Shown in pieces: positions 6,015 to 61,766 of a stretch of DNA of 64,000 nucleotides (the first letter of the stretch is position 1; every line of letters begins with the position of its first letter). This DNA is from an uncultured Actinomycetes bacterium. GTDB taxonomy: Bacteria > Actinomycetota > Thermoleophilia > Gaiellales > Gaiellaceae. Under the pieces are notes generated by a model. It ran no database searches, had not been told where the DNA came from, and saw only the letters and a program-made list of their open reading frames with translations. Both the position numbers and the translations under genes were made by a program. The DNA is taken from contig CAVXZL010000001.1 of the NCBI GenBank assembly GCA_963766345.1, positions 1,911 through 65,910 of the forward strand. The letters are read 5' to 3'.

Positions 6015-6563
6015 TTAGCCGCTCTCGAGCGCATATCCGCTCGCGAGCATCGCGTCGGCCCGCTCGAAGAACGACTCGAAGGACGGGATGTCCCAGCCGA
6101 GCGAGTCGGCGAGGCGGACGATCATGCTGAAGAGCGCGCAGATGTGGATCGCGTCCACGAGCGCCTCGTCGGAGACGCCAGCCGCGCGCACGGCGTCCGC
6201 ATCGGCGCGGGTCACCTCATCCGGCTCGAGCGTCAGCTTCTCGAGGAAGCCGAGCGTCGCAGCGAGGCGCTTCGACACCGGCGCCGTTCGCCAGTCGCGC
6301 CGAACGGCTTCCCAGACCTCCTCGCCGAGCGCGTACGACGCGACCGCGCCGTGGGCGTTCGTTCAGAACACGCACTGGTTGAGCGACGACACGAACGCGG
6401 CGAACAGCTCCCGCTCGCCGTCGCTCCAGTCCGACGGCCCGCGCAACGCGAGCTCCAGCGCGTCCGAGTACGGCCGCCCGAAGAGCTCGGGCCGGTAATG
6501 GAGCGTCTTCAGCACACCGAGGGGCCTCGGCGCGGGAGCGGCATCGACGACGGCGAGCCTCAC
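6015..6563 (-). CDS. AhpD/carboxymuconolactone-decarboxylase-family peroxidase-related protein, predicted selenoprotein (UGA at 6363-6365 decoded as Sec)
   Basis: The tail of track ORF 6363..6824 and track ORF 6015..6278 share one frame and are separated only by a TGA. Read-through gives ERELFAAFVSSLNQCVF-U-TNAHGAVASY, which is the family N-x-C-x-x-C-x-x-x-H motif with Sec at the second Cys. The GTG start at 6563 overlaps the upstream stop (GTGA). Confidence 0.7.
6335..6352 (-). promoter_or_regulatory. SECIS-like hairpin downstream of the UGA in the AhpD-like gene
   Basis: The RNA ACGGCGC-GGUC-GCGUCGU forms a 7-bp stem including one G-U pair. It starts 11 nt after the UGA and has GGU in the apical loop. 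Confidence 0.5.
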
Positions 6564-15927: not shown

Positions 15928-16000
15928 GCCGGAGTAGCTCAGCTGGTAGAGCACCCGCCTTGTAAGCGGGCGGTCGTGGGTTCGAGTCCCACCTCCGGCT
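15928..16000 (+). tRNA. tRNA-Thr (anticodon UGU)
   Basis: The cloverleaf was folded by hand. Acceptor GCCGGAG/CTCCGGC, D arm GCTC-AGCTGGTA-GAGC, anticodon arm CCCGC-CTTGTAA-GCGGG, T arm GTGGG-TTCGAGT-CCCAC. Confidence 0.9.
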
Positions 16001-59645: not shown

Positions 59646-61527
59646 GTGCGCGCGCCCGCTCCTGAAGCCGTCAGGGTCACGCCGGAGCTGCTCCTGCAGG
59701 TGCGCCGCCCCACCGATCTGGCGCTGGCGCCGGACGGAAGGCGGCTCGCGTACATCGTCTCGCCGTCATTCCGAGAGAAGGGCAAGCCGTTCGAGTCGCG
59801 CCTCTGGATCGACGACGCGCCCGCCACCGAGGAGGGCGCAGCCGATGCACTGCCGCGCTACTCAACGGACGGAGCGCTCGGGTATGCCTCTGACCGCGGG
59901 CACGCCGGCCGCCTATCGCTCTGGATCCACGGCCGCGGCGAGCTCGGCGAGATCCCCGGCTCCGTGGAGGACATCGCGTGGTCGCCCGAGGGCACGACGC
60001 TGCTCGTGCTCGCTGCCGATCTCGGGTCCGACCGGGCCGGCGCGCAGGCGGCGACGAAGATCAGGGAAGCCGGCGGGGACGAGCAGGATCCGAAGGTGCT
60101 CAGGCCTGCGACGTTCTGGCGCCGCCTCTACCTCGTCGATGCCGAGTCGGGCGCAACGCGCGAGGTGCAGCCCGACGGCGTGAACGTGTTCGAGTTCGGC
60201 TGGGCGGGCGGCAAGGTCGCGGCCGTGTGCACCGACGATCCGTCCGAGAGCGCGTGGTACGACGCGTGGATCGGGCTGATCGACATCGAGACTCGTAGCG
60301 TCGAGCGGATCCACGAGCCCGAGTGGCAGCTGCAGTGCCCGGTCGTCTCGCCGGGCGGACGCGTCGCCTGGATCGAGGGCTTCGCGTCCGACCGCGGAGT
60401 CGTCACCGGCACGGTCAACGTGCACGGCGTCGGCCCGCTCGCGCCCGAGCTCGACGTGACGTGGATCGACTTCGCGGACGAGGAGACGCTCTGGTACGCG
60501 GGTTGGCGCGGCGCCGGCTCGATGTACGGGCAGCTGGCGGTCGACGGGTCGCACTCGCTCGACGTCTCGGGCGACTTTCTCCTCGGCGCGCGCTTTCAGC
60601 CGCGCGTCATGCCGTACCCGGACGGCTCGAGCGTCGCAGCGGTGTTCGAGTCCCCGCTCGCACCTCCCGAGATCGCGCGCTTCGAGCCGGGCGCGGAGGC
60701 CGAAGAGCTGACGTCGCTCAACAGCGAGCTCGCTGCGGAGCTTCCGGGCGCGGAATGGCGCCCGTACGCGTGGGACTCGTTCGACGGCCTGCGCATCGAA
60801 GGGCTGCTCGCGCTGCCGCGCGGGCACGAGAACGGCGCGCTGCCGCTCGTCGTGTACGTGCACGGCGGCCCGACCTCGACGTGGGCGTGGAGCTTCGCGC
60901 CGCTGCTGATGCAGATGATGCTCCGCGAGGGGTACGCGCTCCTGCTGCCGAACCCGCGCGGCTCGAGCGGCCGCGGGCAGGAGTTCGCCCGCGCGAACCT
61001 CGGCGAGATGGGCGGCGGCGACCTGCAGGACATCCTCGCCGGCGTCGATGCGCTCGTCGCCGACGGCATCGTCGACACCGAACGCGTCGCGATCACCGGC
61101 GGCAGCTACGGCGGCTTCATGTCGTCCTGGGCGATCACGCAGACGGACCGCTTCGCGGCGGCGATCCCCTTCGCGGTCGTCACCGACTGGACGAGCTTCC
61201 ACTACACGACGAACATCGGCCACTTCGACGCGCTCTTCCTGCAGGGAGAGCCGACCGATACCGATGGGCCTTACCCGAAGTGGTCGCCGGTCTTCCACGC
61301 GCGCAACGTGAAGACGCCGACGCTGATCATCCACGGCGAGGACGACCTGTGCACGCCGCTGCCGCAGGCGACCGAGTTCTACAACGCGCTCGTCGAGGCC
61401 GGGTGCGAGGTCGAGCTCGTGATCTATCCCGCGCGAGGGCCACGGTTGGACGGAGCGCGAGCACCAGATCGACGCGTGGAACCGCGCGCATGCGTGGCTC
61501 GACAGACACGTCAAGAGGGACGAATGA
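59646..61527 (+). CDS. S9-family prolyl oligopeptidase/dipeptidyl aminopeptidase-like serine peptidase with an apparent +1 frameshift near 61431
   Basis: Beta-propeller N-terminal region and catalytic Ser in GGSYGG. The C-terminal catalytic-His segment REGHGWTEREHQIDAWNRAHAWLDRHV is only in the +1 frame, ending at TGA 61525-61527. The length is 3n+1. Confidence 0.82.
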
Positions 61528-61766
61528 GCCACGTCCGCATCGAGTACTGCGTCCCCTGAGGGGCGCTCCCGAACGCCGTCGGTTTGACGGCGCAGATTCT
61601 CGAGGAGTTCGAGGAGACCGTCGACGGCGTCGAGGTCGTGACCGGCGTCGGCGGCGTCTTCGACGTGCACGTCGACGGCGAGCTCGTCTTCGAGAAGAAG
61701 ATGCTCGGGCGCTATCCCGATCCCGAAGACGTGATGCCGCTCCTGCGTCCGCGTCTGGCGGGTTAG
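61524..61766 (+). CDS. SelW/Rdx-family protein, predicted selenoprotein (UGA at 61557-61559 decoded as Sec)
   Basis: ATG after AGAGGGA. MSHVRIEYCVP-U-GALPNAVGLTAQILEEF...GGVFDVHVDGELVFEKKMLGRYP matches the Rdx pattern IEYCxxC/U...G.FEV.VDG.L..SK...GRFP. Track ORF 61584..61766 is in frame with the UGA. Confidence 0.78.
61574..61592 (+). promoter_or_regulatory. SECIS-like hairpin downstream of the UGA in the SelW-like gene
   Basis: CGCCGUC-GGUUU-GACGGCG forms a perfect 7-bp stem. It starts 15 nt after the UGA and has GGU in the loop. Confidence 0.55.

Follow-up and report, generated by a model that had tools for sequence, protein, structure and literature searches.

SelW-like selenoproteins, which carry a CxxU motif (U being selenocysteine, Sec), outnumber every other selenoprotein family in the data from the Sargasso Sea and occur in several bacterial phyla, and the small apical loop of the selenocysteine insertion sequence (SECIS) hairpins that accompany them contains a G (PMC1088965, PMC1794560). 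Here we describe a gene of this kind in a 64-kb window, by which we mean the whole stretch of DNA that was analysed, from an uncultured bacterium of the Gaiellales/Thermoleophilia in the Actinomycetota (contig CAVXZL010000001.1; GC content 69.5%). The gene shares with the described bacterial members the family profile, a CxxU motif directly after strand 1, the coexistence of Sec and Cys forms, and an in-frame UGA followed just downstream by a hairpin with a small, G-containing apical loop. It differs from them in its host lineage and in the prevalence of the UGA form, which is present in 80/80 of the best related loci. Since the bacterial SelW-like selenoprotein family is already known, the window gene is a straightforward new member of it. 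A search of the literature on Gaiella or Thermoleophilia in combination with selenocysteine returned no selenoprotein report for the lineage; what seems to be new in the literature searched is the occurrence in Gaiellales/Thermoleophilia, the apparent dominance of the UGA form there, and the systematic truncation of these genes in public annotation.

The predicted coding sequence of the Rdx/SelW-like selenoprotein occupies 61524..61766 on the forward strand and consists of 80 codons, including Sec12, followed by a TAG stop. On the DNA it reads ATG ... TGC GTC CCC TGA GGG ... TAG, with the ATG at 61524, the in-frame TGA at 61557-61559 and the TAG at 61764-61766. The CxxU redox motif (61548..61559, forward strand) is made up of Cys9 (TGC, 61548-61550), Val, Pro and Sec12 (UGA, 61557-61559). 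Translated as it stands, the interval 61524-61766 gives MSHVRIEYCVP, a stop, GALPNAVGLTAQILEEFEETVDGVEVVTGVGGVFDVHVDGELVFEKKMLGRYPDPEDVMPLLRPRLAG and the terminal stop; immediately past the TGA the translation runs GALPNAVGLTAQILEEF and continues to ...LRPRLAG and the stop, so that the read-through product is MSHVRIEYCVPUGALPNAVGL...LRPRLAG. An open reading frame (ORF) that had been listed mechanically at 61584..61766, with a TTG start and 60 aa in length, shares its frame with the TGA. The initial annotation, made from the letters of the DNA, had claimed an ATG at 61524, a UGA in frame with it inside C-V-P-U, and a frame common to that UGA and the mechanical ORF, and translation bears out all three.

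The identity of the protein depends on how the UGA is treated. With the UGA read through and U written as C, the product matches the Pfam family Rdx (PF10262) at 66 bits (E = 3.5e-18, cut-off 22.6) over profile positions 1-73 of 74, and the 60-aa ORF matches it at 40 bits over positions 20-73. A match to the full length of the Rdx profile requires read-through of the UGA, and this decisive protein signal lies far above chance. The NCBIfam model TIGR02174 (CXXU_selWTH) adds 53.6 bits against a cut-off of 34.2, and with both models above their curated cut-offs the assignment to the SelW/Rdx family made at the outset is confirmed. Sequence matches in the PDB, over residues 3-79, are to the bacterial Rdx structures 3DEX (E = 1.2e-11), 2FA8, 2OJL, 2OKA, 2OBK and 2P0G, with E values from 1e-11 to 1e-5, and further to MIEN1 (2LJK) and, more weakly, mouse selenoprotein W (2NPB, E = 0.004).

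These structures also show what is shared and what is not. The bacterial ones, among them SAV_2001 of Streptomyces avermitilis (3DEX) and Atu0228 (2FA8) along with 2OKA, 2OJL, 2OBK and 2P0G, resemble the window protein in sequence and in model superposition (template-modelling, TM, scores of 0.80-0.84), but they have Cys instead of Sec, are about 20 residues longer, and carry a C-T-Q-C motif where the window protein has C-V-P-U. Mammalian selenoprotein W and MIEN1 share the Rdx fold and the position of CxxU/CxxC, selenoprotein W being a distant relative. When the read-through product is aligned to Cys- and Sec-containing Rdx homologues, the check that the initial annotation had proposed, U12 falls on the second Cys of CxxC, both in the Cys-form homologues and in the structures 3DEX and 2FA8. 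The fold was tested on an AlphaFold model of a Cys homologue (P0003) that is 75% identical to the window protein. This model, with a predicted local distance difference test (pLDDT) score of 91.6, has the thioredoxin-like order beta-alpha-beta-beta-beta-alpha and holds the CxxC/U motif between strand 1 (E6-12) and helix 1 (H18-32); its best PDB matches are the bacterial SelW-related structures 2OKA, 2FA8 and 3DEX at a TM score of 0.83 (range 0.80-0.84), followed by thioredoxins at about 0.58. The gene product is an 80-residue SelW-like protein of the Rdx family, a putative thiol-selenol oxidoreductase with the active site Cys9-Val-Pro-Sec12.

A genomic scan in which each GTDB species was represented by a single genome turned up 447 relatives, and the best 80 of these were analysed. 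All 80 loci lie in metagenome-assembled genomes (MAGs) of Gaiellales/Thermoleophilia, and their products are 60-86% identical to the window protein. Every one of them has TGA at the same codon, which makes 81/81 sequences when the window is included, and the motif before the TGA is IEYCVP in all except three, where it is IEYCAP. The nearest Rdx relatives are L001 and L032, both 86% identical, and P0005, which is 97% identical and comes from a 917-nt contig. The orthologue is also carried by the complete Gaiellales chromosomes OY969889.1, OY969787.1 and OY969104.1.

The second component of the locus is a hairpin of the bacterial SECIS (bSECIS) type that lies within the coding sequence at 61574..61592 on the forward strand (CGCCGUC-GGUUU-GACGGCG), in the codons for N-A-V-G-L-T-A. 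Its 5' arm (61574-61580) and 3' arm (61586-61592) pair into a perfect 7-bp stem around the GGUUU loop (61581-61585), and the hairpin belongs to the minimum-free-energy (MFE) fold, with -11.9 kcal/mol when folded alone. A spacer of 14 nt separates the UGA from the stem, and 21 nt separate it from the loop; the perfect 7-bp stem and GGU-containing loop that had been placed fifteen nt past the UGA are as described, in that the stem begins at the 15th nt. The published bSECIS consensus asks for an apical loop of 3-9 nt, a stem of 4-16 bp, a G in the first two loop positions, a distance from UGA to loop of 16-37 nt, and an MFE of -7.5 kcal/mol or below (PMC13188914). With a 5-nt loop, a 7-bp stem, GG at the start of the loop, a distance of 21 nt and an MFE of -11.9 kcal/mol, the window hairpin lies inside every one of these limits, and the claim that it is SECIS-like gains further from its conservation with compensatory changes.

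Covariation was assessed on an ungapped 51-column alignment of 80 sequences, for which RNAalifold predicts exactly the 7-bp helix. The hairpin is found at the same offset in 80/80 loci with 98.3% of cells paired, and when the 3' partner is slid by 1-3 columns as a control, pairing falls to 27-68%. Four of the seven pairs have changed on both sides (C-G to U-A, G-C to A-U, C-G to G-C); such double-sided changes occupy 19 cells as against 3.0±1.6 in shuffles, and not one of 500 shuffles reached the observed covariation score. Some of the compensations fall at synonymous third positions (GCT...GCA in L001, L032, L033 and L006), and at a U-A pair of the window the two bases are supplied by Val GUC and Thr ACG, the corresponding codons in most relatives being Ala GCC and Ala GCG. 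The consensus of the loop is RGUCU, in which the G at position 2 and the U at position 5 are invariant. Its Gly codon is GGT in 72/72 cases, compared with 41/563 (7%) of the other Gly codons of the same genes, and third-position entropy amounts to 0.1-0.8 bits in the hairpin codons versus 1.2-1.6 at other four-fold sites. The covariation and the suppression of synonymous change together suggest that the RNA structure itself is under selection. Folding of larger regions of 60-101 nt around the hairpin was no better than that of shuffles (z ~ -1.1, not significant).

A bulged U is a feature of the SECIS of E. coli fdhF. In comparison with elements of the fdhF type, the window stem is short, a perfect 7 bp with no bulged U, and its binding by SelB is putative; the eukaryotic SelW SECIS is of another structure and lies in the 3' untranslated region, whereas the window element sits within the coding sequence, 14 nt past the UGA. 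Like the fdhF type, the window hairpin is a stem-loop that follows the UGA directly on its 3' side, has a loop of the GGU type, and keeps a spacing within 16-37 nt (PMC13188914).

We hold it to be very probable that this gene genuinely encodes a selenoprotein. Translation would start at the ATG at 61524, which overlaps the stop codon of the upstream peptidase gene, and because of this ATGA overlap the peptidase and Rdx genes are probably translationally coupled. The ribosome would not terminate at the UGA at 61557-61559; the 7-bp hairpin with its GGU loop, 14 nt downstream, would act as a bacterial SECIS and recruit SelB-GTP-Sec-tRNA(Sec), and Sec would be inserted. The product would then take the thioredoxin-like Rdx fold, with CxxU between strand 1 and helix 1, and the motif would presumably cycle between selenol/thiol and selenenylsulfide forms.

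Several observations weigh against the selenoprotein reading. For the clade as a whole, incorporation of Sec at the UGA would be deduced from sequence. None of selA, selB, selC or selD lies within the 64-kb window, and E. coli SelA, SelB and SelD (NC_000913) gave no tblastn match at E <= 1e-3 in the window and the 80 loci. In the window, 28 of the 1163 TGA triplets (2.4%) precede a hairpin of bSECIS geometry whose stem of 7 bp or more is perfect and wholly Watson-Crick, and 10% do so when G-U pairs are admitted, so a hairpin in any single sequence of such GC-rich DNA says little. Two Cys-form genes (L086 and L087) keep 7/7 of the hairpin pairs around an AGUCU loop, and since four of the six Cys forms read in DNA keep most of the pairs, part of the hairpin conservation could stem from the conserved N-A-A-x-L-A-A peptide together with GC-rich codon bias. 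Finally, an indel in the neighbouring peptidase gene shows that the assembly is not error-free, but this indel cannot create the TGA at 61557-61559.

The Cys forms come from a protein search that found 668 relatives, of which the best 120 were classified; seven of these are full length with IEYCVPC, and a few have W, G or R at that place. In six of the seven the Cys codon was read in the DNA as TGC or TGT. Besides L086 and L087, the genes L083 and L089 retain 6/7 of the pairs, and L084 and L088 retain 2-3/7, the hairpin being lost. The GGU at the start of the loop is missing in all six; in L086, L087, L083 and L089 (P0003, P0009, P0008 and P0039), AGU or GCU replaces it. The hairpins of these four resemble SECIS relics that have outlasted a Sec-to-Cys conversion, and the overall pattern fits recent conversions followed by decay of the hairpin. 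The expectation that Cys forms would be without the hairpin was only partly borne out, with 4/6 keeping 6-7/7 pairs, and it was dropped as an argument.

Of the rival explanations, the one that survives best, though it is very unlikely, supposes that a reassigned code or near-cognate read-through puts Trp, Gly or Cys at the UGA, and that the hairpin is a mere stimulator of read-through. It can draw on database entries with W, G or R at the UGA position (P0001, P0014, P0019, P0004) and on the fact that the case for Sec insertion is read from the letters of the genome. TGA, however, is the commonest stop in the window, ending 15/32 confident long ORFs, and it also terminates the upstream peptidase in orthologues, which argues that TGA is not reassigned. 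The position in question is that of a catalytic Cys in homologues, the classic pairing of Sec with Cys, and both the geometry of the hairpin and its GGU loop are as in SelB-binding elements. Nor is the lineage without a tRNA for Sec. Rfam found no tRNA-Sec in the window, whose only tRNA is Thr-TGT at 15928-16000, but L022, a contig of a Gaiellaceae MAG, holds a tRNA-Sec gene with anticodon TCA at 975-1067 on the reverse strand (ARAGORN; Rfam RF01852 at 66.5 bits, the gathering score being 47), so that the lineage has selC. This gene, the only sel gene found among the 80 loci, lies 9 kb from a UGA-containing Rdx orthologue and has no flanking selA or selB. As to the database entries, the one with R (P0004), which is the sole such entry read at the DNA level, has a real CGA codon, and those with W and G may be alternative-code translations. 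W or G is printed at the UGA position of this family and of the second selenoprotein family of the window (below) in several public calls (P0001, P0014, P0019, P0121-P0155); such letters probably arose from the translation of contigs under an alternative genetic code and not from real substitutions.

Still further down we place the possibility that the TGA simply acts as a normal stop or arose as an inactivating mutation, in which case a pseudogene or a sequencing error would have left only fragments of a gene. Errors or decay do occur locally, as the window-specific frameshift in the adjacent peptidase gene shows, and one relative, L085, has CGA where the others have TGA. Against these stands the TGA at the identical codon in 81/81 sequences, whose proteins diverge by as much as 40%; decay would not keep a stop codon across an order. 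In the stretch before the UGA, moreover, the codons of RIEYCVP vary synonymously with the amino acids invariant (Arg CGC in 46 and CGG in 30, Val GTC in 43 and GTT in 34), which means that the frame upstream of the UGA is translated. Between the window gene and its nearest orthologues, L001 and L032, the ratio of nonsynonymous to synonymous substitution rates (dN/dS) is 0.14-0.15 at a dS of about 0.5; judged by these substitution patterns, both sides of the UGA are under purifying selection. With the conserved TGA, the synonymous variation and this dN/dS, neither a pseudogene, nor a sequencing error, nor a true stop with a downstream start can explain the gene. The gene of L085 (3001-3249, protein P0004), which lies on an ENA contig of 158 kb, has the Arg codon CGA in place of TGA and keeps a perfect hairpin, CGCGACC-GGUCU-GGUCGCG; either the T changed to C very recently or the base was miscalled.

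No better placed is the view that the real gene is the 60-aa ORF from TTG 61584 and that the 11 upstream codons are untranslated leader: 103 of the best 120 database homologues are indeed called in this way, as proteins of less than 70 aa that lack the CxxX N-terminus and begin just past the UGA position, but such a product would lack strand 1 and the redox motif and match only profile positions 20-73, the upstream RIEYCVP is invariant in protein and yet synonymously variable, the Cys-form homologues are full length, and the truncated calls start differently from locus to locus (LPNA.., MPNA.., MTAQ.., MRILEE..), as arbitrary picking of the first start after a stop would give. The initial annotation had named homologues starting at TTG 61584 without the CxxC/U N-terminus as the finding that would overturn it; homologues do not begin at that position, and the many database entries with a start there or close to it are gene calls cut short.

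The window contains a second predicted selenoprotein gene, which encodes an AhpD-like, peroxidase-related protein. It occupies 6015..6563 on the reverse strand, with a GTG start at 6563 and the motif C-V-F-U, in the context ...SLNQCVF-UGA(6365-6363)-TNAHG.... Its product matches TIGR01926 at 97.9 bits (cut-off 81.8) and also the Pfam family CMD, and AhpD-like CxxU proteins are a known bacterial selenoprotein family (PMC1088965). A hairpin, ACGGCGC-GGUC-GCGUCGU (6352-6335, reverse strand), begins 10 nt past the UGA; its stem has 7 bp, one of them G-U, its folding energy is -9.8 kcal/mol, and its loop lies 17 nt from the UGA. In L007 (15098-14595, reverse strand) a homologue with 69% identity carries TGA at this codon too, preceded by codons that differ and followed by 49 nt that match without a difference. 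Among the best 120 AhpD-like homologues, 66 are truncated calls that start 1-16 residues past the UGA position, 39 have Cys and 13 are printed with W. When the window was scanned generically for further genes with an in-frame UGA and coding-like flanks, only the AhpD-like gene came up. The claim of two independent CxxU genes about 55 kb apart is thereby upheld, the AhpD-like gene being real, with a GGUC-loop hairpin and a TGA homologue in L007. That their hairpins match is true insofar as both have 7 bp, a GGU loop and 17-21 nt from UGA to loop, but the likeness is a generic one.

Upstream of the Rdx gene lies a gene for an S9 peptidase (prolyl-oligopeptidase family) at 59646..61527 on the forward strand, whose true stop, TGA at 61525-61527, overlaps the Rdx start codon as ATGA. 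Left uncorrected, the peptidase ORF extends over 637 aa (59646..61559) and runs to the Rdx UGA. Alignment to the orthologues in L001 and L032 places a single extra base near 61427 in the window gene, and tblastn likewise splits the window peptidase over two frames where the L001 and L032 orthologues are contiguous. The insertion shifts the frame just ahead of the catalytic His (EGHGW), so the peptidase frame enters that of the Rdx gene and the ORF ends artificially at the UGA; the artificial end had been recognised in the initial annotation, and this window-specific 1-nt insertion is its cause. The frame-corrected protein, which ends in ...VIYPREGHGWTEREHQIDAWNRAHAWLDRHVKRDE before the stop, matches Peptidase_S9 over profile positions 1-211 of 213. 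Either the assembly is wrong at this base or the gene has recently undergone a true frameshift. In L001 an equivalent GTGA joins the peptidase stop to the Rdx start.

An S9 peptidase stands next to the Rdx gene only in the window, L001 and L032. Across the 81 loci no universal neighbour was found, the most that recurs being an aldehyde dehydrogenase upstream in 18 and an ABC transporter downstream in 14, and gene context therefore gives no clue to function. A SnoaL protein is a neighbour of the Rdx gene in the window. In 19/80 loci a tRNA gene begins about 25-125 nt past the Rdx stop; it is tRNA-Gly (GCC) in L002, L004, L008, L010-L012, L014, L016, L017, L031, L037, L039, L042, L046, L061 and L075 and tRNA-Thr (TGT) in L003, L005 and L015, and the tRNA-Thr of the window is 45 kb away from its Rdx gene.

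Gaiellales are abundant, mostly uncultured soil Actinomycetota. A wider proposal, which we put forward tentatively and with our judgement leaning slightly against it, is that nearly all Gaiellales may be marked by the UGA form of Rdx with a SECIS lying in the codons N-A-A-G-L-A-A, that the order may be an unrecognised Sec-decoding lineage whose selenoproteins are systematically truncated in annotation, and that here an RNA element may dictate protein sequence. If this is true, base-pairing and not protein function would be the reason why the Gly-Leu dipeptide is retained, along with the paired residues Val/Thr or Ala/Ala.

Knowledge of how Sec is decoded, and of what Rdx proteins do, is left unchanged by these results. 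For annotation they mean that the window's mechanical ORF and 103/120 of the best homologues are without the catalytic N-terminus, and that the peptidase ORF was wrongly extended into the Rdx gene. The 81 sequences, in which a bacterial SECIS embedded in coding sequence shows covariation, could be used for training selenoprotein predictors or for studying dual RNA/protein constraints. For the organisms themselves, the finding would place Gaiellales-type soil Actinomycetota among the users of selenocysteine, with at least two predicted selenoprotein genes within 64 kb.

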